A stretch of DNA of 64,000 bases from an uncultured Gammaproteobacteria bacterium (GTDB taxonomy: Bacteria > Pseudomonadota > Gammaproteobacteria > Steroidobacterales > Steroidobacteraceae): NCBI GenBank assembly GCA_963764065.1, contig CAVXRM010000001.1, positions 58 through 64,057 of the forward strand, read 5' to 3'. This document shows, piece by piece, positions 1,224-26,621 of this stretch. The position numbers and the translations under genes were made by a program. Positions within the stretch are counted from its first letter, which is position 1, and the number at the start of each line of letters is the position of its first letter. The notes below the pieces were generated by a model that was not told the DNA's origin, did no database searches, and saw nothing but the letters and a program-made list of their open reading frames with translations.

Positions 1224-1235
1224 CGTGGGCCTGTC

Positions 1236-1361: not shown

Positions 1362-1685
1362 GGCACAGTCGGGCGCGAATGTTGGGCCGCATGCCAAGCT
1401 AACGCGGCACACCTTGTTCGATCGTCCGCGTCGACAAGCCCCGACCGCTCAGTCAGTGCCTTCGCTTCCGCGGCGTGACCCATCACCGCAAGCCCATGTT
1501 TGGCTCCCAAGGCCTGGGTAGCGTTTCGGGCTCTACAAGTCCCGAAAATCCGTGATCTCTCTGACTCCTGCGGCCACCCGCTTGCGCCGCTACGAATGAG
1601 GGGGCATTCTTAGGCGGCGAGTCAATGGCATCGATCTCGCGACAGCGGCAACTCTGGAGGCATAGGAAGTGTCATCTGCTGCGCC

Positions 1686-1811
1686 CCCTAACAACGCGTT
1701 CGAGCGGTCCGTGAACCGTCATTGCGTGCGCGCCGCTAACGCGGCACGCCATCATGCGCTTCCGGCGCGCAGCCGCGCTCATCGCGCGGCCGCTCAACGC
1801 GAGCGTTAGAC
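1686..1811 (+). repeat. attC site 4 (126 bp)
   Basis: CCCTAAC-AACGCGTTCGAGCGG ... CCGCTCAACGCGAGC-GTTAGAC. Confidence 0.8.
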
Positions 1812-1820
1812 CCACGCTTT

Positions 1821-2351
1821 ATGGACACCGTTGTTCATGCCACGCAGGAGTCGGAGTTACCTCGGCGCTTCATCAAGGTAAACCACGCCGGCGAGCACGG
1901 TGCCGTCAATATCTACAGGGCGCAAGCTTTAGTGTGCAGGTTGACGGCACCAGACTTAGTGCCGGTGCTGCAAGAGTTTCGAGCACATGAGGAACGGCAT
2001 AGGGCACTCTTCAGTCATTACCTCTCGAAGCACAAGTCAAGGCGATGTCGCAGCTACCACCTCTGTGGCATTGGCGGCTTTGTTCTTGGGGCCATAAGTG
2101 GGCTGTGTGGGCGCGCAGCCGTTGCCGCAACTACCATTGCTGTTGAGAAAGTGGTTCTAAGGCACCTCAACGAGCAGCTCGTACAAATTGCCAACGACGC
2201 TGACGCGCACGCGGCAGTCTCAGCCATTATTCGCGACGAGACAGAGCATCACGATCGCGCTAGTCTTGATGTAAAGCAGGGGACCTTCTGGCCGAGACTG
2301 TTTATGCCGTTGGTCAGCGGTGCTACCGAGGCGGTGATCTGCTGGGGTTAA
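1821..2351 (+). CDS. cassette ORF, demethoxyubiquinone hydroxylase (COQ7)-like di-iron protein
   Basis: VNHAGEHGA..., EERH, VEK..., ETEHH form a duplicated E...ExxH di-iron carboxylate pattern typical of COQ7. Confidence 0.7.
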   Translation: MDTVVHATQESELPRRFIKVNHAGEHGAVNIYRAQALVCRLTAPDLVPVLQEFRAHEERHRALFSHYLSKHKSRRCRSYHLCGIGGFVLGAISGLCGRAAVAATTIAVEKVVLRHLNEQLVQIANDADAHAAVSAIIRDETEHHDRASLDVKQGTFWPRLFMPLVSGATEAVICWG

Positions 2352-2369
2352 AGTTGTGAGCATGCTTGG

Positions 2370-2495
2370 GTCTAACAACGCGTTCGAGCGGTCCGTCATG
2401 CCTGGTCGCAGGCGCGCCGCGAGCGCCCTGGTACATTGTGCGCCCGCGGCGCGCGTCATGCGGCATCGCGCGGCCGCTCAACGCGAGCGTTAGAT
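2370..2495 (+). repeat. attC site 5 (126 bp)
   Basis: GTCTAAC-AACGCGTTCGAGCGG ... CCGCTCAACGCGAGC-GTTAGAT. The central part is nearly identical to attC 6. Confidence 0.8.
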
Positions 2496-2500
2496 TCCGA

Positions 2501-2812
2501 ATGTATCGGGCGTTTCTACTTCTCCTGGTTCTTGCCCTCGCGTCGCGGCCTGATGTTTTGTACGCTCAGACACACGCAGGAATTACCATCGACGTGGCCA
2601 CGGACGGCACTTGCCGTGCCGCGGGCTTGCATGTTTCGTGTCGCGACATCGGAGCAAAGCTTCGCGAGTCGCGGGCTCCACTAGACACATGGTTGACGTT
2701 CTCCGGAGACGGCGCTCTCAACTACCCATTGTTGAAATCAACTATTGACTCACTCGCGCACGCGGGCTTTAGTAAAATGAAGATTGGATTCCTTGTGGAG
2801 CCGGTTCACTAA
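2501..2812 (+). CDS. cassette ORF, small secreted protein (103 aa)
   Basis: ATG 6 nt after attC5. N-terminal signal peptide MYRAFLLLLVLALASRPDVLYA. Confidence 0.55.
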   Translation: MYRAFLLLLVLALASRPDVLYAQTHAGITIDVATDGTCRAAGLHVSCRDIGAKLRESRAPLDTWLTFSGDGALNYPLLKSTIDSLAHAGFSKMKIGFLVEPVH

Positions 2813-2831
2813 TGTACGGCGCGCATTCGAA

Positions 2832-2957
2832 ATCTAACAACGCGTTCGAGCGGACCGTCATGCGTCGTCGCAGGCGCGCCGCGAGCGCCCTGGTACATTG
2901 TGCGCCAGCGGCGCGCCTCATGCGGTATCGCGCGGCCGCTCAACGCGAGCGTTAGGC
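2832..2957 (+). repeat. attC site 6 (126 bp)
   Basis: ATCTAAC-AACGCGTTCGAGCGG ... CCGCTCAACGCGAGC-GTTAGGC. Confidence 0.8.
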
Positions 2958-2961
2958 GGCC

Positions 2962-3348
2962 ATGACCTACCCGAGTCTCGTGCGTCGCTACGTCGCAACC
3001 ACCGTTGACGTTATAGCGATCATCTTTATCTTCTATATCTACGCCCAGAGCCCCTTGTACATTGCTCACGATGGTGTCACTGCTGTATGGCCGCTGTGGT
3101 TGTTTGTCCTATATGAGCCCATATGCAATCGATACCTCACAACGCTAGGGCAGTTCGTAATGCATTTCAGGGTACGTACGTACGTAGGACATAAGCGCGT
3201 ACCCGTGTGGAGAGGTATCGTTAGAGTGCTCGCCAAGTATGCGCTGGGCGCGCTGTCGTTCTTTCGAATGCCAATGCAAAAACAACGCAGAGCACTTCAC
3301 GACATCATTTCTGGCACGATCGTAATCGAAGCGGGAGGGCCTGTATGA
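2962..3348 (+). CDS. cassette ORF, RDD-family membrane protein
   Basis: N-terminal RRYVATTVDVIAII and C-terminal HDIISGTIVI are RDD-like, with hydrophobic helices. Confidence 0.55.
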   Translation: MTYPSLVRRYVATTVDVIAIIFIFYIYAQSPLYIAHDGVTAVWPLWLFVLYEPICNRYLTTLGQFVMHFRVRTYVGHKRVPVWRGIVRVLAKYALGALSFFRMPMQKQRRALHDIISGTIVIEAGGPV

Positions 3349-3364
3349 ATGCGTGTGCGCGGCC

Positions 3365-3490
3365 GCCTAACAACGCGTTCGAGCGGTCCGTGAAGCGTCA
3401 TCGCGTGCGCGCCGCGAGCGCGGCACGCCATCATGCGCCGTCGGCGCGCAGCCGCGCTCGTCGCGCGGCCGCTCAACGCGAGCGTTAGGT
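3365..3490 (+). repeat. attC site 7 (126 bp)
   Basis: GCCTAAC-AACGCGTTCGAGCGG ... CCGCTCAACGCGAGC-GTTAGGT. Confidence 0.8.
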
Positions 3491-3493
3491 TGC

Positions 3494-4048
3494 ATGCGCG
3501 CGCACTTCGTCTTGCTGATCCTCGCAAGTGCCGCATGCTCGGCGCAGCCCTACACCTTTCGAGGTATCTCTCAAAACCTCACTTGCGAGGAGGCCCGTGC
3601 GAAAGAAGCCGCACTGGGTAGCGTATTCGTGCGCGAAGTAACTCCGAACGCATCCGAGCCGCAGTATAAGCATTACCTGTTCACTGGCACTCTCTATGAC
3701 GCACCGGTGGAGATCAAGTTGGGGTGTCTCACGTTGCAAGGGTCCGGGCGACAAATTCTCTACGACGGGTTCTACATCTTCCACTCGCCCGAGTCGGTTC
3801 CAGCCAACGCATTCCTGGATCGCATCATCCGTGAACTCACGCCTACGTACGGTGCACCCAGAGAAGTTGCGGACATCTGGAACAAGGCAGACGGTACAAG
3901 CACGATCATTGGAAAGAGAGTTCTGTTTGCCTGTGTCAATGACGCCCGTTCGGGCTATTCCCTGATGGCCTTGCTTCGTAACCCCGCGCAGGCGCAACTT
4001 GACTACCAAGTGGTGTTAGACATGCGTTACGTTAATGGTCCATGCTAG
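3494..4048 (+). CDS. cassette ORF, secreted hypothetical protein (184 aa)
   Basis: Starts 4 nt after attC7. Signal peptide MRAHFVLLILASAACSAQ. Confidence 0.55.
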   Translation: MRAHFVLLILASAACSAQPYTFRGISQNLTCEEARAKEAALGSVFVREVTPNASEPQYKHYLFTGTLYDAPVEIKLGCLTLQGSGRQILYDGFYIFHSPESVPANAFLDRIIRELTPTYGAPREVADIWNKADGTSTIIGKRVLFACVNDARSGYSLMALLRNPAQAQLDYQVVLDMRYVNGPC

Positions 4049-4064
4049 AGCAGCCGCGCATGCA

Positions 4065-4148
4065 AACTAACTACGCGCTCGAGCGGACAGCTAAACAGCA
4101 ATGCAATCTTCGGCGTGGTCGCGCCGCCGCTCAACGCGAGCGTTGGGC
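4065..4148 (+). repeat. attC site 8 (short class, 84 bp)
   Basis: AACTAAC-TACGCGCTCGAGCGG ... CCGCTCAACGCGAGC-GTTGGGC. Confidence 0.7.
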
Positions 4149-4170
4149 GACCCCGCAGCAGGTAGCGCAT

Positions 4171-4464
4171 ATGACACCGCGCGAGGAGACTTTTGTTAGA
4201 CGCTGGGCAGTTCAAAGGGCGCGGGGTCGGCGTCACTACGTACTCATGGCCGGCGTGGTTGGCTACGGCGTACCAATGTTTGTGGTAATGACCTGCGTTG
4301 TAAATAGGCCTGCCCATCTGACGATTGGCGAACTCGCTGGCGCGGCTGCGGTGTGGGCTATTGCAGGGTTGGGCTTTGGCGCAACTGTCTGGTACTTCTC
4401 GGAGCGACGCTACAGGCGATTGGTCCCGAGTGAAGGAAGTGGGGTTAAAAGTGGGATCGCCTAA
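4171..4464 (+). CDS. cassette ORF, small two-helix membrane protein (97 aa)
   Basis: First ATG after attC8. Two hydrophobic segments. Stop lies within the R'' of attC9. Confidence 0.5.
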   Translation: MTPREETFVRRWAVQRARGRRHYVLMAGVVGYGVPMFVVMTCVVNRPAHLTIGELAGAAAVWAIAGLGFGATVWYFSERRYRRLVPSEGSGVKSGIA

Positions 4465-4584
4465 CGACGCGTTCGAGCGGTCCGTGAAACGATATCGCGA
4501 GCGCGCTGCGAGCGCGGCGCGCCATCATGTGCCTCCGGCGCGCGGCCGCGCTCAACGCGCGGCCGCTCATCGCGAGCGTTAGAC
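4459..4584 (+). repeat. attC site 9 (126 bp)
   Basis: GCCTAAC-GACGCGTTCGAGCGG ... CCGCTCATCGCGAGC-GTTAGAC. The TAA stop of the preceding ORF lies inside R''. Confidence 0.8.
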
Positions 4585-4587
4585 CAC

Positions 4588-5043
4588 ATGAATGCACCAT
4601 TTCTGTATGCGTTAGTGATAGCGATGGCGGGCGTTGCGCCGCTCAGCGCGTTCTCTGCGGAGTCGCAGTGCGGCGGCAACGCGATTGACGTAGGCAGATG
4701 TCAGGATAGTGCACTTCGTGCCGCTAACGAGCGGCTCAACGCGGTTTACTCCATGGTTACAAAGATGTTTGATGCGGGCGAGGTTGATTCCGACATCTCG
4801 TACTTTCCCATCAAGAAGGCGAAAGCGATTGCTGCCGAGCGCTCGTGGATCCGGTATAGAGACGCACAGTGCGGGGCCGAAGGCGCGATGATTATCCCTG
4901 GATCTGGTGTCGCCACTGTAACGGGTAGGTGCCTTTTGTTGCTGACGCAAGAGCGCATAGGCTATTTGGAAAGCCTCGCTGATGAGCTTAGGGGAGAGTC
5001 AAAGCTGTGCGAGAACGACGCCTCCGCGTGCAAGTTGAAGTGA
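4588..5043 (+). CDS. cassette ORF, LprI/DUF1311-family (lysozyme-inhibitor-like) secreted protein
   Basis: Signal peptide, conserved Cys pairs and the ERSWIRYRDAQC motif typical of DUF1311. Confidence 0.65.
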   Translation: MNAPFLYALVIAMAGVAPLSAFSAESQCGGNAIDVGRCQDSALRAANERLNAVYSMVTKMFDAGEVDSDISYFPIKKAKAIAAERSWIRYRDAQCGAEGAMIIPGSGVATVTGRCLLLLTQERIGYLESLADELRGESKLCENDASACKLK

Positions 5044-5077
5044 ATAGGAGTCACGAGAGGTGGCAGGGCGGAATGTG

Positions 5078-5203
5078 GTCTAACTACGCGTTTGAGCAGA
5101 CCGGGGAGCCGTCCGCGCGGGCGTGCGTCCGGCAATCACAACCATTGAGGCCGGCCGCGCGCTTGAAGCGCTTGCGGCCGGCCGCTCAACGCGAGCGTAA
5201 GAC
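5078..5203 (+). repeat. attC site 10 (126 bp, degenerate R')
   Basis: GTCTAAC-TACGCGTTTGAGCAG ... CCGCTCAACGCGAGC-GTAAGAC. R' reads GTAAGAC, not GTTRRRY. Confidence 0.65.
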
Positions 5204-5244
5204 GTCAGACTTGACGTGCACTACGTTGTACGTACACTGTAAGA

Positions 5245-5538
5245 ATGGATGGCATCCGCTTCGAGTGGGACCCCAAGAAGAACCGGCTCAACAAGGCTCG
5301 GCACGGGGTGTCGTTTGAAGAGGCAAAAACAGCCTTCTTTGACGAACACGCACGGATCATTGCTGATCCCGAGCACTCTGACGATGAAGACCGGTTGATT
5401 CTCCTCGGTCTGAGCATTGACTTGCGTGTTCTGGTGGTCTGCCACTGCTACAGGGAGTCAGACCGCATCATTCGCATTATATCCGCCCGAAAGGCCGACT
5501 CATCTGAACGAAGCGAGTACGCAGGGTTCCTACCATGA
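5245..5538 (+). CDS. brnT: BrnT-family (DUF497) toxin
   Basis: FEWDPKKNRLNKARHGVSFEEAKTAFFD...IRIISARKA is the DUF497/BrnT signature. Confidence 0.8.
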   Translation: MDGIRFEWDPKKNRLNKARHGVSFEEAKTAFFDEHARIIADPEHSDDEDRLILLGLSIDLRVLVVCHCYRESDRIIRIISARKADSSERSEYAGFLP

Positions 5539-5747
5539 AGAAGCACTACGATTTTTCCAAGTCGAAGCCCAACCCCTATGTGGGTAAGGCTAAGCGTTCC
5601 ATTACTATTCGCCTCGATCCCGGTACCATCGATTACTTTCGCGATTTGGCCGGCACAACCGGCATCCCATATCAGAATCTGATAAACCTGTATCTTCGGG
5701 AATGTGCGTCGGAGAAAAAGCGCTTGCGGCTTGAGTGGGCGGCCTGA
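5535..5747 (+). CDS. brnA: BrnA-family antitoxin
   Basis: 4-nt ATGA overlap with brnT. YDFSKSKPNPY...ITIRLD...IDYFR...GIPYQNLINLYLRECA. Confidence 0.8.
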   Translation: MKKHYDFSKSKPNPYVGKAKRSITIRLDPGTIDYFRDLAGTTGIPYQNLINLYLRECASEKKRLRLEWAA

Positions 5748-5748
5748 C

Positions 5749-5836
5749 GCCTAACAACCGCATCGAGCGCGCGCGTGAACGATAGAGTGCCAAGCTCGAG
5801 CATGGGTGCCCGCGGCGCTCATGCGGAGCGTTAGGC
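5749..5836 (+). repeat. attC site 11 (short class, 88 bp)
   Basis: GCCTAAC-AACCGCATCGAGCGC ... GCGCTCATGCGGAGC-GTTAGGC. Both arms changed together relative to the other copies (compensatory covariation). Confidence 0.75.
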
Positions 5837-5840
5837 ACCC

Positions 5841-6350
5841 ATGGAACCGAAGACACTAGCATCAGTTGTCGTCGTCGCCCTAAGTTCGCTCTCGGCGGTC
5901 TCTATAGCTGCTGCCCCAGAGACGGACGAACCGATCTCGGGGGTAACCGTATCCAGCTCGGGCCACGGTATTCCATACGGAACCAGCGCTGGCAAAGATT
6001 ACCTTCCATGGTTGAAGCCCACGAATGACCCAGAATATGGCTACTCCAAGAGCAAGCCCATTGAGATTGGGGGGTTTCTCGAAGGCAGGGGCAATGATTG
6101 GCCCGATCAGTATTTCAGCTCACTACTTGGCCCGAATGGTGAGCCGACCAGCTTTGAGCGAGTCGGGAGCTGCTGCGCCTTTGAGACGAAGAACCCTAAG
6201 ATCGTCCAGGCAGGCATGAAAGTTGGTTTCCTCGATGTCTTCAAAGTCACCATCCTGGGGCGAGAGCCGGTCCTTATCTATGTGACGCTATATTCAGAAG
6301 GGCGCATCTCGGCGCCAAAAGGGTTCACTACGCGAGGAAGGGGTGCCTAA
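5841..6350 (+). CDS. cassette ORF, secreted hypothetical protein (169 aa)
   Basis: Starts 5 nt after attC11. Has a signal peptide. Stop TAA lies inside the R'' of attC12. Confidence 0.55.
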   Translation: MEPKTLASVVVVALSSLSAVSIAAAPETDEPISGVTVSSSGHGIPYGTSAGKDYLPWLKPTNDPEYGYSKSKPIEIGGFLEGRGNDWPDQYFSSLLGPNGEPTSFERVGSCCAFETKNPKIVQAGMKVGFLDVFKVTILGREPVLIYVTLYSEGRISAPKGFTTRGRGA

Positions 6351-6470
6351 CAATGCGCTCGAGTGAACCGTGATCCGCTGTCGCAGGCGCGCCGCCGGCG
6401 CGGCACGCCATCAAGCGCCGCCGGCGCGCAGCCGCGCTCATCGCGCTGCCGCTCAACGCGGGCATTAGGT
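6346..6470 (+). repeat. attC site 12 (125 bp, degenerate R')
   Basis: GCCTAAC-AATGCGCTCGAGTGA ... CCGCTCAACGCGGGC-ATTAGGT. R' has lost its G. Confidence 0.65.
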
Positions 6471-6476
6471 CTCTGC

Positions 6477-6971
6477 GTGGGCATCATCGCGATTCGGGAT
6501 GCGACTCGAGACGACTACGAGGTCATTCTCGCGCTCAACCTTGCTGACGTGACGCACACGAGCCCAATGGACTCAGCACGGCTGATCACCCTCAGTGGTA
6601 TATCGTGCTATCACCGCGTTGCGTGTATGGACGGCCAGGTATTGGGCTTCCTCCTAGCGATGCGCAGCGGCGCTCCCTACGAGAATGACAATTTTGCGTG
6701 GTTCAGCCGCAAGTACCCAAGCTTTGTGTATGTGGACCGTGTCGTTATCTCAAATGCTGCGCGAGGGCAACGCTTAGGGTCACTGCTGTATGAAGACCTG
6801 TTCGGTTGGGCCCGACAGAACGGCATCCCGCATGTGACGTGTGAATACAATATTGTTCCTGCCAATGAACCATCACGACTGTTTCACGAGAAATTCGGAT
6901 TCAAGGAGCAGGGGACCCAGTGGGTATCAAATCGTACTAAACTCGTCTCGCTGCAAGCGGCACAGACCTGA
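6477..6971 (+). CDS. GNAT-family N-acetyltransferase (last cassette or first core gene)
   Basis: GTG start just after attC12. VDRVVISNAARGQRLGSLLYEDL is an acetyl-CoA-binding Q/RxxGxG/A-like motif. No attC follows it. Confidence 0.65.
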   Translation: MGIIAIRDATRDDYEVILALNLADVTHTSPMDSARLITLSGISCYHRVACMDGQVLGFLLAMRSGAPYENDNFAWFSRKYPSFVYVDRVVISNAARGQRLGSLLYEDLFGWARQNGIPHVTCEYNIVPANEPSRLFHEKFGFKEQGTQWVSNRTKLVSLQAAQT

Positions 6972-7013
6972 CAGCCGCATGGACCGATCGGGTTGCTACC
7001 GCCTCAGTTCATG

Positions 7014-7616
7014 TCACTTTGGTTGCATGTTCAAAGTGCCGCAAAACGCCGAGGCATCATGAAAATCCGGCTGCTCCCGCGGATGATTCAACGCCCAGTA
7101 TGAGTGCTGCCCATTGTTCGCTTCGATTACCGCCGCCACGCCCACCTGCCACCCGGCAATGCCCGAGCCGGCCGCCATCGCAGGCACGACAATACTGGCG
7201 CAGACCAGCAGATCCCGTTCGGCTTCATGGCGCAGCTCGATCTTGCAATGACCGGCCTCGAGATCGCGCTGACCACGACGGTAGTCTTCGAACTCGTATG
7301 CAGCCCAGGCGCCCCCGGGCGCGAAATTGAATTCCAGGTAGCGCGGCGAATCACCGGCGCGCGCAAATAGCTCCAGGCAGGTGTGGCGCCACAATTGATC
7401 ACGGCGGGCAGCGCCGCGTGCCTTGCCGCCGGAATGTTCCGGCATCCGCACAAGCTGCAGGTTGCCATGCAGTCGGTATTCAAGAGCCAGTACGCCATCG
7501 CCTCCCAGCGACCCCGACACCATGATGGAGGTCAGCGGTGCGCTGCGCGCAGTCGTACCACGCACGGCGCCGCCCGGATGGCAGATCAAGGGCAGATCAT
7601 CGAAGCGTGCAGTCAT
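7014..7616 (-). CDS. conserved hypothetical protein (possibly DOMON-like fold)
   Basis: 200-aa ORF with the WRHTCLELF...YLEFNFAPGGAWAAYEF motif. Assignment is from memory only. Confidence 0.45.
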   Translation of the reverse strand: MTARFDDLPLICHPGGAVRGTTARSAPLTSIMVSGSLGGDGVLALEYRLHGNLQLVRMPEHSGGKARGAARRDQLWRHTCLELFARAGDSPRYLEFNFAPGGAWAAYEFEDYRRGQRDLEAGHCKIELRHEAERDLLVCASIVVPAMAAGSGIAGWQVGVAAVIEANNGQHSYWALNHPREQPDFHDASAFCGTLNMQPK

Positions 7617-8092
7617 TTAGTCCGCGGGCCGGTCGGGTATTCGCTGCCGTCACGATGCCGGTAGACACTCTCGCCCTTCAGTATCTGCAGGTCGATGTCC
7701 GGATAATCCACGGCCTCTTCGGTCGGACGCCGCGAGCCTACTTCAAGCACCAGCGCATCGGCGTTCGAGCGATTCTGCAACTGGTGGCCGTCGGCCACAC
7801 CGGCCTTGAATCCGGCGCAGTCGCCGGCGCGCAGCACTTCCTCACCCTGGTTGGTGACCAGGACGACTTCGCCAGCCAACACGTAGACGAATTCGTCCTC
7901 GGCGGCGTGCCAGTGCCGCTGGCTCGACCAGGTGCCCGGCGGCAGGCGCAGGCGATTGACGCCGAACTGCGTGAGTCCGGCCGCATCGCCGAGTCGCGAG
8001 CGATGTCGCTCCCGGCAGGGCACATCGTAGGGTGGCGGATAGCGGGTGCCCGTCAATACCTGAACCTGGTCTTCATTGATCTTCGCGCTCAT
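7613..8092 (-). CDS. cupin domain protein
   Basis: HWHAAEDEFVYVLAGEV...GDCAGF is a cupin motif. Start taken at MSAKINED. Confidence 0.75.
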   Translation of the reverse strand: MSAKINEDQVQVLTGTRYPPPYDVPCRERHRSRLGDAAGLTQFGVNRLRLPPGTWSSQRHWHAAEDEFVYVLAGEVVLVTNQGEEVLRAGDCAGFKAGVADGHQLQNRSNADALVLEVGSRRPTEEAVDYPDIDLQILKGESVYRHRDGSEYPTGPRTK

Positions 8093-15808: not shown

Positions 15809-18800
15809 ATGCTCAGCAATTTCAAGAGAGGCAGCCTCATCGGTCTGATGCTGGCCGCCAGCCAGTGCCTGACAGCAATCAGCTACGCGGCCGACCAGCC
15901 CGCCAAAGTGGATAGCGGCGAGCTCGAGGAGGTCATCGTCACCGGCTCGCGTATCGCCACGCCCAATTCCACCAGCACGAGTCCGATACAGGTGGTGACC
16001 TCGCAGGACATCCTGGTGTCCGGCAAGTCCGACATCAGCGACATCATCAACCAGCTGCCGCAGAACTTTAACAACGACCTGGGCCAGGACCTCGGCAATC
16101 GCACCTCGGGCCTGTCGACCGCGGGTGGCGTGGCAACGGCGGACCTGCGTGGCCTGGGCCCGAATCGCACGCTGGTGCTGGTCGATGGCCGACGCCTGGG
16201 CGTGGGCTCGCCGAACACCGCCATCCAGTCGCCGGGACCTGACCTCGACCAGATTCCGGCGGCGCTGGTCGAGCGCGTCGAAGTGGTCACCGGCGGCGCC
16301 TCGGCGACCTATGGCTCCGATGCCATCGCCGGTGTCGTCAACTTCATCATGAAGAAGAATTTCCAGGGCCTGCAGATCGATGGCAACCTGAGTGAGTACT
16401 GGCACAACAATCACAATACCTTCGTGCAGAATGCGATGACTGCCGTAGGCGAAACGCCCGTGACCGGAAGCTCGATGGATGGGCGCAGCCGCAACTTCAC
16501 GATCACCGCTGGCGCCAACTTCGATGACGGCAAGGGCAATGTCACCGCGTATTTCGGTTACCTGAAGTCCGATCCGGTCGCCAGCGGCGACCGTGACTTT
16601 GGCGGTTGCCAGTTGAGTTCCGCGCCGACCAGCCTGCTCGATCCGCCGGTCTGCCTGGGGTCTTCGAACTCGAACTACTTCCGGCCGGATTCGCCGGGCA
16701 GTCCGAATGCGGGCGTGGCCTTCAGCGTGTTGGGCACCGACTTCATTCCGCGCGGATCGCAGCCCACCACGCCGCCGTCGCTGTTCAATTCTCAGCCGTA
16801 CATCTACATGAACCGCGGCGACCAGCGCTACACGGCCGGATTCAGTGGACATGTGGACCTGCAGGATTACGTCAGGCCCTACGTCGAATTCAATTTCATG
16901 AATGACCGCAGCCACCAGCAGATCGCGCCGGCGGCGCTGTTCCGCGACAGCAATCCCAACGATCCGACCGGCGCCGGCGACTACTACATCAACTGCAGCA
17001 ACCCGCTGATGAGCGCGCAGGAGCAGCAGACGCTGTGCACGCCGGCACAGATCGCCGCCGACCAGGCGGCCATTGCCGCTGGCCAGAATCCGGTCACGGT
17101 GCAGATGCGCATCGGCCGTCGCAACGTCGAAGGCGGCGGGCGTTTCTCCGACTATGAGCACACCAACTATCGCGCCGCCTTTGGCGCCAAGGGCGACCTC
17201 GGCGATGCCTGGACTTACGACGCCTATGGCCAGTTCTACTACACCACGTTCTACAACTCGAACAGCAAGTACCTGAGCTTCGCGAACATCGACAAGGCGC
17301 TGCTGGTGACCACCGATGCCGCCGGCAATCCGGTCTGCATCAGCGGCGGTTCGTGCGTACCGTACAACATCTTCCAGGATGGCGGCGTGACCGATGCGGC
17401 GCTCAACTACCTGTATCTGACGGGTACCGCGTATGGCTCAACCACGCTGCGTACCGTGCATGCCGACATGACCGGCCAGCTGGGCAAGTACGGCATCAAG
17501 CTGCCCACGGCCAGCGACGGCGTGGCGGTGAACATCGGCTATGAAGCCCGCAATGAGCATCTGCAGTTCGAGCCCGACTCGGCGGAAAAGAGCGGCCAGC
17601 TGTCCGGTGCCGGCAGCGCCGCGGTCGCCATCAATCGCAGCGTCTCGGTGAACGAGCAGTTCATCGAGGTGCGGGCACCGCTGGTGCAGGACAAGACGGG
17701 AATCAAGGACCTGCTGTTCGACACCGGCTTCCGCCGTTCCGACTACTCGACCTCGGGCCCCGTGAATGCCTACAAGTTCGAGGTGCAGTATGCGCCGACC
17801 GATTCGGTGCGCTTCCGGGCCTCCTACCAGCGCGCGATCCGCGCACCCAGCATCATTGAACTGTACAACCCGATCAATGTCGGCCTGATCCAGCTGGGCA
17901 ACGATCCTTGCGCGCCGCCCGCGAGCCGCTCGCTGGCCGATTGCCTGCACACGGTCTCGGCAGCGCAGGCGGCGGCGTTCACCGCGGCCTACAATGCCGG
18001 CACCATTCCGCAGGCGACGTTGGGCCAGCTCTCGCAGCTGACCGGCGGAAATCCCAATCTCAAGCCGGAGCAGGCTGACACCTATACCTACGGGTTGACC
18101 TTCAAGCCTTCGAAGCTGCCCAACTTCACCGGCAGCATCGACTACTACGACATCAAGCTCAAGGACACGGTGGGCGTGTTGCCGGCCAATATCATCCTGG
18201 CCAACTGCCTCGATACCGGAGATCCGGGGTACTGCAACAAGATCGTGCGCACGGCCAGCACCTTCGGCCTGGTAGGCAACAGCCTCAACTCACTGGGCTA
18301 CATCGAGCAGACCAACGTGAACGTGGGCGCCAACCAGGTCAGCGGCGTCGATCTGCAGGGTGGCTACAAACTGGCAATGCGTTCCGGCTGGGGTTCGCTG
18401 GCATTCACGTTGAATGGCGCCTACCTGCTGAAGAGCACCACCACGCCCACGCCGGTCTCGCATACCTACGACTGCGCCGGCTTGTTCGGATCGACCTGCC
18501 AGACGGTCAATCCGAAGTGGCACCATATCGTGCGCACCACCTGGCTCACGCCCTGGGATATGAATGTTTCGTTGACCTGGCGCTACATCGGCAGCGTCAA
18601 GCTCGACAACAACGACCCGGATCCCTCGCTGCACAACGCGGTGACCGGCTGGACCTTCCTGCCTCCCGGCTACAACGCCTTCGATGCCCGCTTCCCCTCG
18701 TTCAGCTACTTCGACCTGGCGGCGACCTGGGATGCCAGGAAGAGCCTGCAGCTGCGCGCCGGCATCAGCAACATGTTCGACAAGGATCCGCCGCTGGCAA

Positions 18801-18895
18801 GCTACGAGATCATTTCGGGTGGTGCCGCCAACACCTACTCGACCTACGATCAACTGGGACGCCAGCTGTTCGTGTCATTCACCGCGAAGTTCTGA
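15809..18895 (+). CDS. TonB-dependent receptor
   Basis: Signal peptide, plug motif EEVIVTGSRI, 1028 aa, and a terminal aromatic residue (F). Confidence 0.9.
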   Translation: MLSNFKRGSLIGLMLAASQCLTAISYAADQPAKVDSGELEEVIVTGSRIATPNSTSTSPIQVVTSQDILVSGKSDISDIINQLPQNFNNDLGQDLGNRTSGLSTAGGVATADLRGLGPNRTLVLVDGRRLGVGSPNTAIQSPGPDLDQIPAALVERVEVVTGGASATYGSDAIAGVVNFIMKKNFQGLQIDGNLSEYWHNNHNTFVQNAMTAVGETPVTGSSMDGRSRNFTITAGANFDDGKGNVTAYFGYLKSDPVASGDRDFGGCQLSSAPTSLLDPPVCLGSSNSNYFRPDSPGSPNAGVAFSVLGTDFIPRGSQPTTPPSLFNSQPYIYMNRGDQRYTAGFSGHVDLQDYVRPYVEFNFMNDRSHQQIAPAALFRDSNPNDPTGAGDYYINCSNPLMSAQEQQTLCTPAQIAADQAAIAAGQNPVTVQMRIGRRNVEGGGRFSDYEHTNYRAAFGAKGDLGDAWTYDAYGQFYYTTFYNSNSKYLSFANIDKALLVTTDAAGNPVCISGGSCVPYNIFQDGGVTDAALNYLYLTGTAYGSTTLRTVHADMTGQLGKYGIKLPTASDGVAVNIGYEARNEHLQFEPDSAEKSGQLSGAGSAAVAINRSVSVNEQFIEVRAPLVQDKTGIKDLLFDTGFRRSDYSTSGPVNAYKFEVQYAPTDSVRFRASYQRAIRAPSIIELYNPINVGLIQLGNDPCAPPASRSLADCLHTVSAAQAAAFTAAYNAGTIPQATLGQLSQLTGGNPNLKPEQADTYTYGLTFKPSKLPNFTGSIDYYDIKLKDTVGVLPANIILANCLDTGDPGYCNKIVRTASTFGLVGNSLNSLGYIEQTNVNVGANQVSGVDLQGGYKLAMRSGWGSLAFTLNGAYLLKSTTTPTPVSHTYDCAGLFGSTCQTVNPKWHHIVRTTWLTPWDMNVSLTWRYIGSVKLDNNDPDPSLHNAVTGWTFLPPGYNAFDARFPSFSYFDLAATWDARKSLQLRAGISNMFDKDPPLASYEIISGGAANTYSTYDQLGRQLFVSFTAKF

Positions 18896-18934
18896 ACGCA
18901 ATCGGGCGGGGGCGATGCGGCGCGCACGGCACAG

Positions 18935-21900
18935 CTAGTGCTTGAACGCCGCATCGCCCACCCGGTGATAGTTGGCCGGGTGCGAGGTGACGAGGCTGCG
19001 TTGCGTGGCATCGCTGTACACGTGGCAGGCGCCGGTACAGTCGTGTAGTTCGGCCACCGTATACAGCAGCCCATTGCTGGTCTTCGGATGCTGTGCAGCC
19101 TGGTAACGCGCGGCATGGCATCCGGCACAGCTGCCGGCGTAGGCCGCCGCGGGCCAGGGGATCTGCTCGCTGTTGCTGGTGTGGCAGCTGTTGCAGGTGA
19201 GCGCAGCGCGATGCTGGCCGGGGAAGGCGCCAGCACTGTGCACGAAATGCCAGGCGCTCCAGTCCGGATAGCTGTGGCAGGTGGCGCAGTCGAGCCGCGT
19301 GCCCAGGTGCGTCGTCGTCAGGCCCGTGGCCACGCTGTTGTTGTGGCAGCTGACGCAGTTGGCCGTCAGCGTGCTGTGATCCATCAGCGCCGGCTTCCAT
19401 CCGAGCGTGCCGTGGCAACTGTCACATTGTGCCGTCGTGGGCACGTGGTTGACGGGCAGGCCCATTGCCTGCAGGCCGTTGTGGCAACTGCGGCAGCTGT
19501 GCGCGGCAATGGCGCTGTGCTCGAAGCGCGCCGGCGTCCACGCGTTGCTGGTATGACAGGCCTCGCAGCTGTTGTTGCTGGCGATGTGATGGGTACCTTT
19601 GCCGCGCGCCACGCTGCCGTTGTGGCAGCTGCTGCAGCTGCCCTTGACCTGCAGGTGATCGACGCTGCTGACTGGCAGCCAGGCCAGGGTGGTGTGGCAA
19701 GTTCCGCAACTGTCGCTGCTGGCGATGTGGGTGACTGGCTTGCCGATGCCGCTGGCCGCGCCGTGGCAACTCTGGCAACTGCTTCCCACCACGCGCCGAT
19801 GATCGAAGCCCGCCGTGCGCCCCAGCGTTGCACCGCCACCCAATGAGGGCACTGCAGTGAAGTTGCCGGCTCGTTGCGCGGGCGTGAGCGGCGCGCCGCG
19901 GCGTGCACCGAACTTGTCGCGGGTGGAATGACAGCCCGAGCCGCCGCAATCCACGCCTTTGTGATGATTGGCGGAATCGCGCACCCACAGTCGCACGCCG
20001 GTGTTGGTCTTCCAGGTCATCCCGATTTCATGACAACTCATGCAGGTCATGGCGCGCACCGCGGCGTGCTTCATGATCGTGCCGGAGAAAGTAGTGAACA
20101 CCGTGGCAGAGTGGCACAGCTCGCAGGCGATGTTGTTGGTGCCGTTGGGCGGGTTCGAGGGGATGTGCCCCGTGGCGCCCGAGGGCGGTGCCTTCAGGGT
20201 CGGCGCCGCCATGTTGGCGAAGGCCAGGCCGTAGGCGTGGCATTGTGCACAGTTGCTGCTGATGTTCACGTGGTTCATCGTCGCCACGCTGTAGTTGCCG
20301 GCTGTGGTGTGGCACAACGCGCAGTTGTTGGCGTCGGCCGCCGGCAGCGGGATGTGGTTGGCCGGCAGATCGGTCGCGCCCTTGAAGCTGGTGGTATTGA
20401 AATGGCAGGTGGAGCACTCGCCGGCTGCCACGTGCGCAGTACCGTCGGCCTTCTTCGCCGGGCGCACCTTGGTCGCTGGTGTACCGATGAAGGTCTTGCC
20501 GGCTTCATGGCAGCTCGAGCAGACGATCGCCGTCACCAGGCTGTGCACCATCGATGGCGGCGCCGTGCCGCTCGCATTGCTGATCAGGAAAGTGCTGAAG
20601 TTGCTGGCCGAGTGGCAGCCCTCGCAGGCTATCGTGCCCGTCGGGATGTGATTGCCCGGTAGCAGCTTGGTGGCCGGCGTACCCACGAAACTCTTGCCGG
20701 CGCCATGGCAGTTGACGCAACCCGTGGCGAAGCCCGTGTGCACCATCGAGGGCGGCGTCGTGCCACTGGCATTGGTGAACGCAAAGCTCGAGAAATTGGT
20801 CGGCGAGTGGCACTGCGTGCACACCACGGTGCCGATCGGGATGTGATTGCCTGGCTCGACCACAGTGGCAGGCGTGCCGACGAAGCTCTTGCCCGGGCCG
20901 TGACAGGTAGTGCAGGCAGTGGTCGATACCACGGCATGGTTCATCGGCGGGCTCTTGTTGTTGATCACGAAACTCGTGAAGCCCGTGGCGCTGTGGCAGC
21001 TCTCGCAAGCCGCAGTCCCAAAGGGCACGTGGTTCGCCGGCGGCAACTTCAAGGTCGGCGGCGCCATGTTGGCGAAGCTCTTGCCCGTGGCATGGCACTG
21101 CGCACAATTGCTGGCGATGTTCACGTGGTTCATCGTCGCCACGCTGTAGTTGCCCGCCGTGGTGTGGCAGAGCGCGCAGTTGTTGGCGTCGGCGGCCGGC
21201 AGCGGAATGTGATTGGCCGGCAGGTCGGTGGCGCCCTTGAAACTCGTGGTATTGAAGTGGCAGGTAGAGCACTCGCCCGAAACCACGTGCGCTGTGCCAT
21301 CGGCTTTCAACGCGGGGCGCACTTTGGTGGACGGCGTGCCCACGAATGACTTGCCGGCCTCGTGGCAGGTGGAGCACACGATCGCCGTAACCAGGCCGTG
21401 CACCATTGAGGGCGCCGCGCTGCCACTGGCATTGGCAAAGGCGAAGCTGCTGAAAGCCGTGCTGGAGTGGCAGCCCTCGCAGGCCATGCTGCCAGTGGGA
21501 ATGTGGTTGGCAGGCAGCGACTTCACCGCCGGCGTGCCCACCCAGCTCTGGCCGACACCGTGGCAGGTCACGCAGGCTCGTGGTGAATCCCGCGTGATTC
21601 ATCGGCGGCACCGCGTTGGCGATCACGAAGCTGCTGAAGTTGCTGGCCGAATGACAGTTGGTGCAGGCCGTGGTGCCGATGGGCACGTGGTTGCCGGGTT
21701 CGACGACCGTGACTGGCGTGCCGATGAAACTCTTGCCGGGGCCGTGACAGGTACTGCAGGCGATGGTCGTGACCACCGCATGGTTCATCGGCGGGCTCTT
21801 GTTGTTGATCACGAAACTCGTGAAGCCCGTGGCGCTGTGGCAGCTCTCGCAAGCCGCAGTCCCAAAGGGCACGTGGTTCGCCGGCGGCAACTTCAAGGTC

Positions 21901-24900
21901 GGCGGCGCCATGTTGGCAAAGCTCTTGCCGGTGGCGTGGCACTGCGCACAATTGCTGGCGATATTCACGTGGTTCATCGTCGCCACGCTGTAGTTGCCTG
22001 CTGTCGTATGGCACAGCGCGCAGTTGTTGCTGTCGGCCGCCGGCAGTGGAATGTGATTGGCCGGCAGGTCGGTCGCCCCCTTGAAGCTCGTGGTATTGAA
22101 GTGACAGGTGGAGCATTCGCCGGTCGTCACGTGCGCCGTGCCATCAGCCTTGGTGGCCGGGCGCAGGCGCGTCGCCGGCGCACCCGCCCAGCTGTGGCCG
22201 GCCTCATGGCAGGCCGAGCAGGCCATGCTGCTCACCACGCTGTGCACCATCGCGGGCGGCGCTGTGCCCGTGAGGTTGCTGAAGCTGAAGCTGCTGAAGT
22301 TCGCCGGCGCGTGACAGCTTTCGCAGGCCGCCGTGCCGAAGGGCACGTGATTGCCAGGCGGCAGTACGGTGACTGGCGTACCCACCCAACTGCTGCCGCT
22401 GGCATGACAGGTGGCACAGGCTACACCCGCCACGGCCGCGTGGTTCATTGGCGGGCTCTTGTTGCTGATCACGAAGCTCGTGAAGTTACTCGCGCTGTGG
22501 CAACTCTCGCAGGCTGCCGAACCCGTGGGCACATGGTTCGCCGGCGGCAGGCGCAGGGCAGGTGGCGCCATGTTGGCGAAGCTCTTGCCGGTCGCGTGGC
22601 ACTGCGCGCAGTTGCTGGCGATGTTGACATGATTCATCGCCGCCACGCTGTAGTTGCCCGCCGTGGTATGGCACAGCACGCAGTTGTTGTTGTCGGCGGC
22701 TGGCAGCGGAATGTGGTTGTTCGGCAGATCCGTAGCGCCCTTGAAGCTGGTGGTATTGAAATGGCAGGTAGAGCATTCGCCAGTCAGCACGTGCGCGGTG
22801 CCATCGGCCTTGGTGGCCGGGCGCAAACGCGTCGCCGGCGTGCCAGCCCAGCTGTGCCCAGCCTCGTGGCAGGCCGAGCAGGCCATGCTGCTCACTACGC
22901 TGTGCACCATCGCGGGCGGCGCCGTACCGCTGGCATTGCCGAACAGGAAGCTGTTGAAATTGGCCGGCGCGTGACAGCTCTCGCAGGCCGCCGTGCCAAA
23001 GGGTATGTGATTGCCAGGCGGCAATACCGTCGCTGGCGTACCCACCCAGCTGCTGCCGCTGGCGTGGCAGGTGGCGCAGGTCACGCCGGATACCGACGCG
23101 TGATTCATCGGCGGGCTCTTGTTGCTGATCGCAAAGCTCGTGAAGCTGCTCGCGCTGTGGCAGCTCTCGCAGGCTGCCGTGCCGATCGGAATGTGATTGG
23201 CGGGCGGCAGTTTGAGCGTCGGCGGCGCCATGTTTGCAAAACTCTTGCCGCCCGCGTGGCACTGCGCGCAATTGCCGGCGATGTTCACATGATTCATCGT
23301 GGCAAGGCTGTAGTCGCCGGCATTGCTGTGGCAGAGCGCGCAGTTGCCGTTGTCCGCAGCCGGCAGCGGAATGTGGTTGTTTGGCAGGTCGGTCGCGCCT
23401 TTGAAGCTCACGGTATTGAAATGGCAGGTGGAGCACTCGCCCGCAGCCACGTGCGCACTGCCATCCGCCTTGGTGGCGGGCCGCAACAAGGTCGCCGGCG
23501 CGCCGAGCCAGTTATGGCCCTGCTCGTGGCAGCTCGAACAGGCCGCACTGGCGACCGCGCTGTGCACCATGGCCGGTGGCGTAGTGCCGCTGGCATTCAC
23601 GAAGCTGAAGGCATTGAAGTTCGACGCGCTGTGGCACAACGCGCAATCAGCGCTGCCCACCGGCACGTGGCCCGCCGGTAGCGTCACGACCGGCGGCGTG
23701 CCGACGAATGCCAGGCCCGAGCCGTGGCATTGCGCGCAGCCCAGCGCGCTGACCGCCGCGTGATTCATCGGCGGGCTTTTGTTGCTGATCACAAAGTTCG
23801 TGAAGTCGGTCGCGCTGTGGCAGCTCTCGCAGGCTGCGCTGCCGATGGGGATGTGATTGCCTGGCGGCACCTTCAGCACGGGCGGCGCCATGTTGGCGAA
23901 ACTGCGGTCCGCGGCATGACACACCGCGCAGGCGCTGGTGCTGACGACGGTGTGATCCATTGTGTAGCTCGAGTAGTCCGCGGCATTGCTGTGACAGGCG
24001 GAGCATTGACTCGATGAGCCGCTGGGCAAGGGTATGTGGTTGCTCGGCAGGTCGGTCGCGCCCTTGAAGCTGGTGGTGTTGAAGTGACAGGTGGAACATT
24101 CGCCCGCAGCCACGTGCGCGCCGCCGCTGGCCTTCAGCGCTGGCCGCAGCACGGTCGCAGGTGCGCCGGCCCAGCTGTGGCCCGCCTCATGGCAGCTCGA
24201 GCAGGTGGCGCTGCTCACCACGCTGTGCACCATCGACGGTGGAGCGCTGCCGCTGATGTTGCCGAACATGAAACTGCTGAATGTCCCTGGCGCATGGCAG
24301 CTCTCGCAGGCTGCCGTGCCGATCGGTACGTGATTGCCGGGTGGCAGCACCGTGGCAGGCGTGCCCACCCAGCTGCTGCCCGTCGCATGACAGGCAGCGC
24401 AGGGGAGACTGGCGACCACCGCGTGATTCATCGGCGGACTCTTGTTGCTGATCGCGAAGCTCGTGAAGTTGCTGGCACTGTGGCAGCTGTCGCAGGCGGC
24501 GGCATCAAACGGGATGTGATTGGACGGTGGCACCTTGAGGGTCGGCGGCGCCATGTTGGCAAAGCTGCGGTCGGCTGCGTGACACGCGGCGCAGGGTGCA
24601 CCGCTGACGACAGTGTGATTCATCGCGTAACTGGAGTAGTCCGCGCTGTTCGCATGGCAGGCGCTGCAGGCCGTCGCCGAGCCATTGGGCAGCGGGATAT
24701 GATTGCTGGGCAGGTCGGTGGCGCCCTTGAAGCTGGTGGTGTTGAAGTGGCAAGTGGAGCATTCGCCCGCCGCCACGTGGGCCGCGCCATCAGCCTTGAC
24801 GGCGGGGCGCAACAGTGTGGACGGTGCACCGGCCCAGCTGTTGCCCTGCTCGTGGCAACCCGAGCAGGCGGCAGTGCCCACGACACTGTGCACCATCGAG

Positions 24901-26138
24901 GGTGGTCCGCTGCCGCTCGCATTGGCGAACATGAACGTGGTGAAGTTCGAACTCGAGTGGCAGTTCTCGCAGGCGCTGGCACCGAAGGGCACGTGATTCG
25001 CCGGCGGCACCTTGAGCTGCGGCGGCGCGAGGTTGGCGAAGCTGCGGTCGGCTGCGTGGCACAGCGCGCAGCCGCTGCTGATGCCATCGTGCCGCATCAG
25101 GTACACACTGAAATCCGCCGGGTTCGAATGACAGAGCGTGCAGGGCTGCGCGGTGGGTATGTGTCCGCTGGGTTGTACGGTGCCGTTGGTAAACGAGACT
25201 GTGGACAGGTGACAGGTGCCACAATCGCCCTGTGCCGGATGTGGCGCTGCGGGCCGCGTCACCATCGTCACGCCGAAGAAGTTCCTGCCGGCCTCATGGC
25301 AATCCGCGCACGGCATGGGCGGTGTCACGGCGGTGTGATTCATCAGCGCGCCACTGAAGCTGGTGTACTGCGTAGGGACATGGCACGCCTCGCAGGCTGC
25401 GCCGTCCGTCGGTAGGTGCGTGGATGGCATGCCGCTGGCCGAAATGCCGTTGTGGCAGCTGGCGCAACCGCTCACTACGCCCGAGTGGTTGAAGACCGCG
25501 CCGCCCCAGTTGAAGGTGGAATGGCAGGCATCGCACTCGAGATTGGTCTCGATATGTTGCGGCCCCTTGCCCTGGGCCTGCACGTTGTTGTGGCAGGAAG
25601 AGCAGCCGCCACGCACTTCCGCGTGATCGAAATTCACCGCCGGACTGAACGCCACGGGTGTGTGGCAGCTCTCGCAGCGGTTGGAGCTCAGGATGTGGTT
25701 GAGCGGCTTGCCGGTAGCGTGCACCTGCGTGCCCAGGCCGTGGCAACTCGCGCAGTCGCGCGGCGTGCCCTTGAACACTGCATTGAAGTGACAGGTTTCA
25801 CAGGGCAGATCGCGATGCTTGCCGATCAGCTCGAAGCCGGTGGTCAGGTGATCGAAGGGCGTGCGCTGCACTTTGGGTGACTGTACGGGCGCGGTCGCGG
25901 CTGCCGCCGCTGTCGCAGGTGCCACTGCCGCTGTCGGCGCCTGGCCTGGCACCGACGCCGGTGCCGCAACTGCCGGGCACGTGGCCCACAGCAGCAGCAC
26001 TGCGAGCAGCATTCGCCCACTGACGCCGCGCGCGCGCGGCGTGCTGAGCGTGTTCAGCTTTGCCACTCTGGCAGTGGCCTGCCGGTGCGGCAGTGTGAGT
26101 GCAGATGCGCGCCGCTGCGTAAACGCCGCGAGTCGCAC
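18935..26138 (-). CDS. giant secreted multihaem c-type cytochrome (~2360 aa, ~74 CxxCH), interrupted by one frameshift near 21578
   Basis: The two ORFs 20505-26138 and 18935-21571 join into one reading frame if one base is removed at ...FTT|ACVTCH. Signal peptide LLAVLLLWATCPAVAA; the likely start is GTG 26066 or ATG 26012. CxxCH occurs on average every ~32 aa, with conserved distal His in NH[IV]P, MNH and MVH. Confidence 0.8.
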
Positions 26139-26303: not shown

Positions 26304-26621
26304 TCAGTCGCGCGCGCGCCGCTCGCCAGGACGCCGCCGGTTTTTCGCGGGCGCAGCGCCAGTGCCCGCGCCGCCGCCAGTGTCATCGTTGCGGCGTGGC
26401 CCGGCGCGCCGGTCGGCATGATGTTGATAACGGCACTGGCAGTGCTCCGGATCGCTGCAGCCCGCCACCGGCAAGCGCGGTGCATCGCGCGAGAGCGTGC
26501 GGCGGCGGGGATTCGCGAGCACCGCATCGCATGGATTCTTGCCGGGAACGATGCTGACCGAGTGCCAGGGTTCCCGGATTGCCTTGCTGGTCGGTTTGCT
26601 GCGAATGACCATGTTTCGCAC
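26304..26621 (-). CDS. small basic Cys/His-containing hypothetical protein
   Basis: 105-aa ORF between yceH and the cytochrome gene on the same strand. No family recognised and coding status is uncertain. Confidence 0.3.
   Translation of the reverse strand: MRNMVIRSKPTSKAIREPWHSVSIVPGKNPCDAVLANPRRRTLSRDAPRLPVAGCSDPEHCQCRYQHHADRRAGPRRNDDTGGGAGTGAAPAKNRRRPGERRARD

Follow-up and report, generated by a model that had tools for sequence, protein, structure and literature searches.

The closest described relatives of the system considered here are the PCC3 gene clusters (He et al. 2017, PMC5566968), which encode a porin, a large cytochrome termed 'extracellular' with a median of 34 haems and a periplasmic cytochrome with a median of 21. 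The extracellular position of the large cytochrome is a software prediction. These proteins carry about one haem per 30 residues, are rich in Ala, Ser, Thr and Gly and have a repeat structure; the maxima reported are 63 haems in Amphritea atlantica and 85 in Agromonas oligotrophica S58 (PMC5566968). The clusters also encode an inner-membrane protein of five helices, with two WX3HX13H motifs and an SGXXG motif, that has been proposed to bind two b haems, and their hosts are largely aerobic or microaerophilic Proteobacteria (PMC5566968). It has been hypothesised that PCC3 acts as a wire (PMC5566968, PMC9900912), and a survey of Gallionellaceae modelled PCC3 cytochromes as long, mainly linear molecules (PMC9900912). 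No purified or functionally tested PCC3 protein is reported in the PCC3 literature cited here, and no multihaem cytochrome above 16 haems has a solved structure (PMC11492766). In this study, a giant multihaem cytochrome gene of an uncultured member of the Steroidobacteraceae was analysed, located at 18935..26066 on the minus strand of a 64,000-nt stretch of DNA (hereafter the window). On balance, we favour the view that its product would be a Sec-exported wire or electron store with 76 bis-histidine (bis-His) haem sites, a lengthened paralogue of the PCC3 large cytochrome that is unlinked to the PCC3 genes and would work with a PCC3 conduit encoded elsewhere.

The gene appears in the window as two minus-strand open reading frames (ORFs), 20505..26138 (1877 aa) and 18935..21571 (878 aa), which overlap by about 1 kb in different frames. 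The first is cytochrome-like as far as ...PPMNHAGFTT and the cytochrome sequence resumes in the other frame as CVTCHGVGQSW..., with the change of sense frame at ACCACG[A]GCCTGC (window ~21575-21578). Deletion of one base there yields a single open frame with zero internal stops. Pairwise DNA alignment with the orthologous locus L004 (database loci and proteins are designated here by L and P numbers) places TTCACCACGAGCCTGCGTG of the window opposite TTCACCACC-GCCTGCGTG, and the sole frame-breaking difference between the two is ACCACGAGCCTGC in the window versus ACCACC-GCCTGC in L004. Using an intact orthologue as query, tblastn showed the frame switch at 21576/21577. The two ORFs are one gene carrying a single extra base. 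A first-pass annotation, made from the letters of the window alone, had joined them into one giant protein with a signal peptide as its sole anchor-like segment; the open repaired frame and a hydrophobicity scan bear this out, but the single-base frameshift that breaks the gene in this assembly had been overlooked. Programmed frameshifting was considered and rejected, there being no slippery heptamer at the site and every orthologue being in frame.

The repaired protein comprises 2358 aa when read from an ATG at 26012 and 2376 aa from a GTG at 26066. The GTG is probably the true start, as the peptide preceding the ATG (VAKLNTLSTPRARGVSGR) is conserved in L003-L005; one homologue is annotated with its start at the equivalent position. 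Residue numbers of the modules are counted from the ATG at 26012. The features of the gene are as follows.

18935..26066, minus strand: whole giant multihaem cytochrome gene (ORF calls, frame repair, Pfam).
25965..26066, minus strand: predicted Sec-type signal peptide, VAKLNTLSTPRARGVSGRMLLAVLLLWATCPAVA followed by AP, conserved in orthologues and the sole hydrophobic segment.
24762..25964, minus strand: N-terminal domain with 13 CxxCH motifs, ~69% identical to the N-terminus of P0023 (L027).
22116..24761, minus strand: four tandem modules of ~220 aa, each with 7 CxxCH and 7 invariant His (residues 418-1299).
20417..22115, minus strand: two tandem nine-haem modules of 281 and 285 aa (residues 1300-1865).
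21575..21578, minus strand: 1-nt insertion (frameshift) dividing the gene into the 1877-aa and 878-aa ORFs (L004 alignment, tblastn).
18938..20416, minus strand: C-terminal region of 493 aa with 15 CxxCH, CGGSGCH and CTGACH (residues 1866-2358).
18935..18937, minus strand: stop codon (18937-18935 as read), in one reading frame with the start after repair.

A regular-expression count of the repaired cytochrome gave 74 CxxCH motifs, one CGGSGCH and one CTGACH, identical to the hand count of the first-pass annotation, and the median spacing between motifs (31 aa) agrees with its estimate of about one haem site per 32 residues. The two atypical motifs, CX4CH and CX3CH, are invariant in a 66-member alignment of the family (there C542/C547/H548 and C845/C849/H850) and, because of this invariance, are probably also real haem sites, which would bring the total to 76. 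The cytochrome holds a further 89 His outside the motifs; 82 of these are conserved among four orthologues and alternate one-to-one with the haem motifs (pattern ChChCh...). When 43 sequences of the 220-aa module are aligned, the positions without variation include the seven CxxCH motifs and exactly seven other His, the latter standing in NH[IV]P, MNH, MVH and AHV contexts. Since each motif pairs with a conserved extra His, the pattern supports one distal His per haem and with it bis-His, low-spin electron-transfer haems. Conserved additional His near the motifs, and haem sites of the bis-His type, had both been proposed at first pass; the former are confirmed by these counts, and the latter is what the alternation of motif and His would suggest.

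The mature cytochrome has 2342 aa and a calculated mass of 238 kDa without haem, or ~285 kDa with 76 haems. Its N-terminal signal peptide, the only hydrophobic stretch of the protein, shows on inspection a positive region, a hydrophobic core and an AVA/AP cleavage-like site, and is kept in orthologues. Lipoprotein anchoring was rejected, as the Cys of the signal peptide is not conserved at the N-termini of P0001-P0003, P0124 and P0125. Residues 1-417 comprise the signal peptide and the 13-motif N-terminal region, which shows below-cutoff similarity to DmsE/MtrA-type decahaem proteins. The frameshift falls within the first nine-haem module. The last ~300 aa of the C-terminal region form the family-defining domain, ending ...NYHRVGDAAFKH.

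The multihaem character proposed at first pass was upheld by profile hidden Markov models. The Pfam families Cytochrome_C7 (300 bits, cutoff 24.8, with matches in 19 stretches), Cytochrom_c3_2 (257 bits, cutoff 25), Cytochrom_CIII (99.6 bits, cutoff 22.9) and Paired_CXXCH_1 (93.9 bits, cutoff 20.6) all scored above their gathering thresholds, as did MtrC/MtrF domain II/IV (196 bits), and on these profiles the protein is firmly predicted to be a c7/c3-type multihaem c-type cytochrome. Scores for the NCBIfam models of OmcA/MtrC and DmsE/MtrA (TIGR03507, TIGR03508) were below cutoff (123.4 versus 209.3 and 166.7 versus 192.2, respectively), as was that for the GSU2203 decahaem family. Comparison of the 878-aa ORF with PDB sequences using phmmer gave no match. 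Profile searches of the PDB returned weak matches to MtrC structures (E = 3e-7) and to 6R2Q chain A (E = 5e-4 and 8e-5), which we take to be MtrA, the database label reading differently. OmcS, OmcE and OmcZ were absent from the PDB sequence and profile matches and from those of Foldseek, and solved c7-type structures gave no sequence-level match below E = 1e-4 in the PDB sequence and profile searches.

An AlphaFold2 model of the fourth 220-aa module, computed without haems, had a predicted local distance difference test score (pLDDT) of 78 and a predicted template modelling score (pTM) of 0.66. It shows short helices at the CxxCH sites and otherwise little secondary structure, as would be expected of such proteins. 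A Foldseek search of the PDB with this model returned 0 matches; the method is probably blind to folds that are dominated by haem and contain little secondary structure. The 878-aa C-terminal ORF, modelled with the 66-sequence alignment, gave a mean pLDDT of 52 and a pTM of 0.31, too poor for use.

The relationship to PCC3 emerges from the relatives of the gene. ORFs were clustered around 86 related loci, and most family members were found to lie in a conserved operon that encodes a CycH-like protein (Pfam Ig_CycH, PF23892), a membrane protein of ~280 aa, a 521-aa cytochrome with 21 CxxCH and the large cytochrome itself, and continues with a secreted protein of ~820 aa (821 aa in one case) and a protein of ~196 aa. 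The inner-membrane protein possesses two WX3HX13H motifs and SGXXG in 49/49 copies, and neighbouring cytochromes of 480-560 aa contain exactly 21 CxxCH in 36 of 38 cases. The ~820-aa protein carries a signal peptide and is a putative outer-membrane barrel, because ...YRIGF, its commonest ending (17/62 ORF calls, 29/62 ending in Phe), is typical of such barrels. Pfam and NCBIfam searches of the operon's accessory proteins gave only weak matches, all in the outer-membrane protein and of the SPOR, TPR and BamD-like kinds. In its motifs, haem counts and gene content, the paralogues' operon agrees with the published hallmarks of PCC3. A database search with the inner-membrane protein linked it to no cultured PCC3 host, only close relatives being present among the best 120 matches, and neither PMC5566968 nor PMC9900912 lists Steroidobacteraceae among the PCC3 hosts in its main text.

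At L027 (3-2251, minus strand) and about 40 equivalent loci, the PCC3 operon is preceded by two further conserved genes in divergent orientation. They encode a 436-aa fusion of a 4Fe-4S ferredoxin with a pyridine-nucleotide-disulphide oxidoreductase, and an ankyrin/Sel1-repeat protein; they could form a cytoplasmic point of entry or exit for electrons. Ferredoxin-NADP+ reductase genes have been described beside some porin-cytochrome clusters in a 2026 cave-metagenome paper (PMC13264449).

Compared with P0023, the large cytochrome of the L027 operon, the window cytochrome shows ~69% identity in its N-terminal domain and the same in its C-terminal domain; what sets the two proteins apart is the number of central modules, six versus about three. 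Both types of gene occur in MAG (metagenome-assembled genome) GL140_3_metabat_371, which carries the long unlinked gene at L007, the closest species-level orthologue of the window gene among the loci listed, and the PCC3 operon at L027. The first-pass annotation had presented the cytochrome as isolated; this does not survive the comparison, as related genomes encode the PCC3 partners at a second locus together with a shorter paralogue. The intact genes divide without exception: PCC3 genes lie beside every copy with 35-52 motifs and beside no copy with 74-78. A neighbour-joining tree of the C-terminal domain, drawn without support values, places the long unlinked genes in at least two groups among the operon-encoded ones, with the group of the window gene as sister to L027. 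When the L027 operon proteins were compared with the window using tblastn, only the cytochrome was matched and no PCC3 partner, and PCC3 genes were likewise not found beside the orthologues in L003-L007. The window gene is therefore classed as a paralogue of a PCC3 subunit and not as a member of a PCC3 cluster. The simplest reading of its origin would be duplication of a PCC3 large cytochrome followed by tandem amplification of the seven- and nine-haem modules.

The family is very common in soil metagenomes. A protein database search gave 990 matches, many of 1400-2500 aa and from Steroidobacteraceae MAGs, and the C-terminal ...HRVxDAAFKH is common to most of these relatives. A survey limited to one genome per species matched 338 loci, and the best 80 of these, which were inspected, all belong to uncultured Steroidobacteraceae, Gammaproteobacteria or other Proteobacteria MAGs, mainly from soil surveys; several of these genomes have two copies of the cytochrome. 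The wide spread of the family in uncultured soil Steroidobacteraceae, and the recurrent pairing of an operon-encoded copy of ~40-50 haems with an unlinked copy of 74-78, may be new, no description of either having been found in open-access papers and preprints. In a representative library, 722 proteins were related at E <= 1e-30, including P0135, P0134 and P0183 of 3592, 3274 and 3949 aa with 131, 129 and 120 CxxCH, respectively. These 120-131 motifs are well above the published 85 (PMC5566968) and 87 (PMC11492766). A related unlinked gene at L008 (879-10906; MAG MFD02134.bin.1.43, contig_14932) is spread over four consecutive ORFs with 35, 26, 13 and 25 CxxCH, 99 together, and would exceed 3,300 aa if the splits are frameshift errors; the same MAG also carries a normal PCC3 operon (L012).

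These comparisons also bear on the exceptional status that the gene had been given at first pass. The comparison with MtrC, OmcS and OmcZ, offered there as a yardstick, understates the genome data, in which up to 87 motifs are described for Desulfuromonadia cytochromes (PMC11492766) and 131 were found in the library used here. Surprise at such a protein in an aerobic genome was misplaced, as PCC3 cytochromes with up to 85 haems are known from aerobes (PMC5566968). The claims of an unprecedented haem count, an unexpected host and an absence of partners do not hold; earlier publications already cover very large haem counts, the occurrence of giant cytochromes in aerobes, and the architecture of PCC3.

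In the mechanism proposed here, each haem would be ligated by the His of its CxxCH and by the conserved His that follows it, and the close-packed haems would form a continuous chain able to move or store electrons over tens of nanometres. Haems are spaced ~0.7-0.8 nm apart along the chain in the structures of MtrA and OmcS; an extended chain of ~76 haems at this spacing would measure ~55 nm. The end domains shared with the operon-encoded paralogue could dock the cytochrome onto PCC3 machinery encoded elsewhere in the genome, the candidate partners being the inner-membrane dihaem-b-like protein, the 21-haem periplasmic cytochrome and the outer-membrane barrel, and the extra modules would give a longer reach or a larger charge storage.

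Several points weigh against this proposal. The function is deduced from composition and from the gene neighbourhood of paralogues, the window gene itself having no PCC3 neighbours, and this organism is presumed, by analogy with a related MAG, to possess PCC3, ccm genes and a secretion route. The assignment of the paralogues' operon to PCC3 was made from shared motifs, haem counts and gene content. Furthermore, the structure model covers a single module without haems, the model of the 878-aa ORF reached a pLDDT of 52 and Foldseek found no PDB match, so that the extended-wire geometry stays a proposal.

The lack of a lipobox, of an adjacent porin and of secretion genes, the Sec signal being the only export feature, would also suit a periplasmic electron store (capacitor) or redox buffer, for example one that copes with oxic/anoxic fluctuations in soil, and not a porin-attached outward wire. 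As many as 76 electrons could be held per molecule by 76 low-spin haems, and both storage and conduction have been proposed for long multihaem cytochromes (PMC11492766, PMC9900912). Against this, a ~285-kDa molecule that is possibly more than 50 nm long is ill-suited to a periplasm of ~20-30 nm unless it is folded back, and the closest paralogues are the operon member placed extracellularly by He et al., a placement that is itself a prediction. A purely periplasmic store is regarded as a rather unlikely reading.

A catalytic role, such as that of a multihaem reductase for a soluble substrate, was also considered, since the invariant CX4CH and CX3CH of the C-terminal region could form special haem sites. 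The protein contains no CxxCK motif and gave no NrfA, HAO, OTR or MccA-type match above noise, each canonical motif is matched by a conserved distal His, so that no coordination site is evidently left free, and catalysis would not explain 76 haems (an argument made in PMC11492766). An enzyme is thus very improbable, and the preferred reading is still that of a conducting or storing chain associated with PCC3. A bolder variant, which we put forward as speculative and think improbable, is that the unlinked genes for 74-78 haems are not spare copies of the PCC3 subunit but constitute a distinct functional class of free-standing secreted haem cables of fixed length, of ~50 nm or high-capacity electron stores, the length of which would be tuned by gain and loss of seven- and nine-haem modules; if this were true, aerobic soil Steroidobacteraceae could exchange electrons with minerals or humic matter during anoxic spells.

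The gene consists of tandem repeats (periods of 660-855 nt), a structure well known to mislead assemblers, and the question arises whether a far shorter repetitive gene was expanded by mis-assembly. At the DNA level, identity between the copies amounts to only 62-88%, and an assembler is therefore able to distinguish them. The 878-aa ORF corresponds to database protein P0091, whose 90% identity cluster includes P0124 (2360 aa) and P0125 (2350 aa). Four further assemblies, produced by separate projects, contain intact orthologues in a syntenic position, 2350-2404 aa in length and with an identical order of modules: P0124 on L004, P0125 on L005 and L006, and P0001 (2404 aa) on L003, with 74, 74 and 76 CxxCH, respectively. 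The orthologue contigs of P0124 and P0125 have a common neighbourhood of FKBP, glyoxalase, DUF480, the cytochrome and a convergent TonB-dependent receptor, and more distant relatives measure 2407-2535 aa. The window gene and L004 are collinear over 7.07 kb; their alignment has 7 gap positions and an identity of 93.5%. A mis-assembled expansion is effectively refuted, its probability being close to nil, and the repeat divergence and the four assemblies uphold the first-pass annotation on this point; the length of the giant gene is genuine and no assembly artefact.

The frameshift is a separate matter. The ratio of nonsynonymous to synonymous substitution rates (dN/dS) against L004 and L005 is 0.10 before the frameshift and 0.11-0.13 after it, which shows that the whole gene was under purifying selection until very recently; the similarity of the values on either side implies that the break either arose recently or was introduced by the assembly. 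The pseudogene reading, in which the insertion is real in this strain and the product would be an N-terminal cytochrome of ~1,500 aa with a junk tail, or none, has in its favour that the frameshift is present in the sequence as given and that very large repetitive genes are large mutational targets. Moreover, 18/18 flanking genes common with L004 are intact, indicating that the contig around the cytochrome is not generally error-prone and that the frameshift could be a genuine inactivating mutation, a point that also counts against our interpretation of the gene as functional. On the other side, no second lesion was found within the 7.1 kb of the gene, dN/dS downstream of the shift (0.13) is close to that upstream (0.10), and the orthologues are intact in the four other assemblies.

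Frame breaks also occur elsewhere on the contig. At window 56000-60800 on the plus strand, flgE, flgF, flgG and flgI (possibly also flgH) are each divided over two or three frames, with at least six frame changes in 4.8 kb, and their Pfam matches are still strong (FlgI 200 bits, Flg_bbr_C 81 bits); flgN, flgA, flgC, flgD, flgJ and flgK, which flank the broken genes, appear intact. This looks like a patch of consensus indel errors, or very recent decay of the flagellar operon. Clustered indel-type breaks in highly conserved flagellar genes resemble consensus error, and because they lie on the same contig an artefactual frameshift in the cytochrome is favoured. We conclude that the cytochrome frameshift is probably an assembly artefact or a very recent mutation, and that a true pseudogene is unlikely.

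In the window, the cytochrome gene stands alone among housekeeping genes, convergent with a TonB-dependent receptor at 15809-18895 (plus strand). Pfam scans of ~50 ORFs across the 64 kb detected no porin, ccm or reductase gene, in agreement with what the first-pass annotation had noted of both the receptor and the missing partners. The receptor is 1028 aa long in the window and in L004; in L005, described as the closest species-level genome, 766 aa and a geneless gap of ~1 kb are found at 17093-20370, probably owing to a frameshift or truncation in that assembly. Upstream of the cytochrome lies one further small ORF.

26304..26621, minus strand: ORF of 105 aa with a high content of Cys, His and Arg (…REPWHSVSIVPGKNPCDAVL…CSDPEHCQCRYQHH…), kept beside the orthologues in L003 and L004.

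This ORF has no Pfam or NCBIfam match; in L001 and L002, which hold more distant long homologues, a different small secreted protein of 112 aa is found upstream instead. Neither a promoter nor a terminator was detected in a scan of 18.7-26.8 kb, and an Rfam scan of the window gave no match. The first 8 kb of the window (1-8000) have a G+C content of 58-61%, versus ~66% elsewhere, and few ORFs with high third-position GC, and may have been acquired from elsewhere. The genes there include those for an LprI-like protein, a GNAT acetyltransferase and COQ7, a ubiquinone hydroxylase that depends on oxygen and so is consistent with an aerobic lifestyle.

If conduction or storage by the cytochrome is true, widespread 'aerobic' soil heterotrophs would gain a built-in route of extracellular electron exchange, with a bearing on the redox cycling of iron, manganese and humic matter in soil. 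The occurrence of short operon-encoded and long unlinked copies within one genome also offers a natural experiment on how module number would set the length of a wire.

Among known systems, the large cytochrome of PCC3 is the nearest in kind. The window protein resembles it in having ~32 residues per haem, a composition rich in Ala, Ser, Thr and Gly and haem-bearing internal repeats; the paralogues of the gene cluster with a putative barrel, a 21-haem cytochrome and a signature-bearing inner-membrane protein of ~280 aa, and the hosts are likewise aerobic or microaerophilic Proteobacteria. It differs in that the window gene lies outside any PCC3 cluster and encodes a protein of the 74-78-motif type, versus 35-52 motifs in operon copies of the same family. 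The MtrCAB system of Shewanella (MtrC/OmcA/MtrF, MtrA) carries electrons across and beyond the outer membrane; likenesses are the bis-His haem chains predicted here and the Pfam match to MtrC/MtrF domain II/IV. The window protein would hold 76 haems versus 10, however, has no lipoprotein signal, lacks the beta-barrel-rich domains I and III of MtrC and has no MtrB-type porin gene adjacent.

GSU1996-type proteins and the giant cytochromes of Desulfuromonadia similarly contain tandem c7/c3-type units in one polypeptide and are predicted to form elongated haem chains, for which conduction or storage has been proposed. By comparison, the window protein comes from a gammaproteobacterium of oxic soil and is built of seven- and nine-haem modules of 220-285 aa, and its family has its own C-terminal domain ending ...HRVxDAAFKH. 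With OmcS, OmcE and OmcZ it would share a continuous stacked-haem chain and long-distance conduction outside the cell, but those cytochromes polymerise subunits of 4-8 haems, whereas the window protein is a single polypeptide of fixed length.

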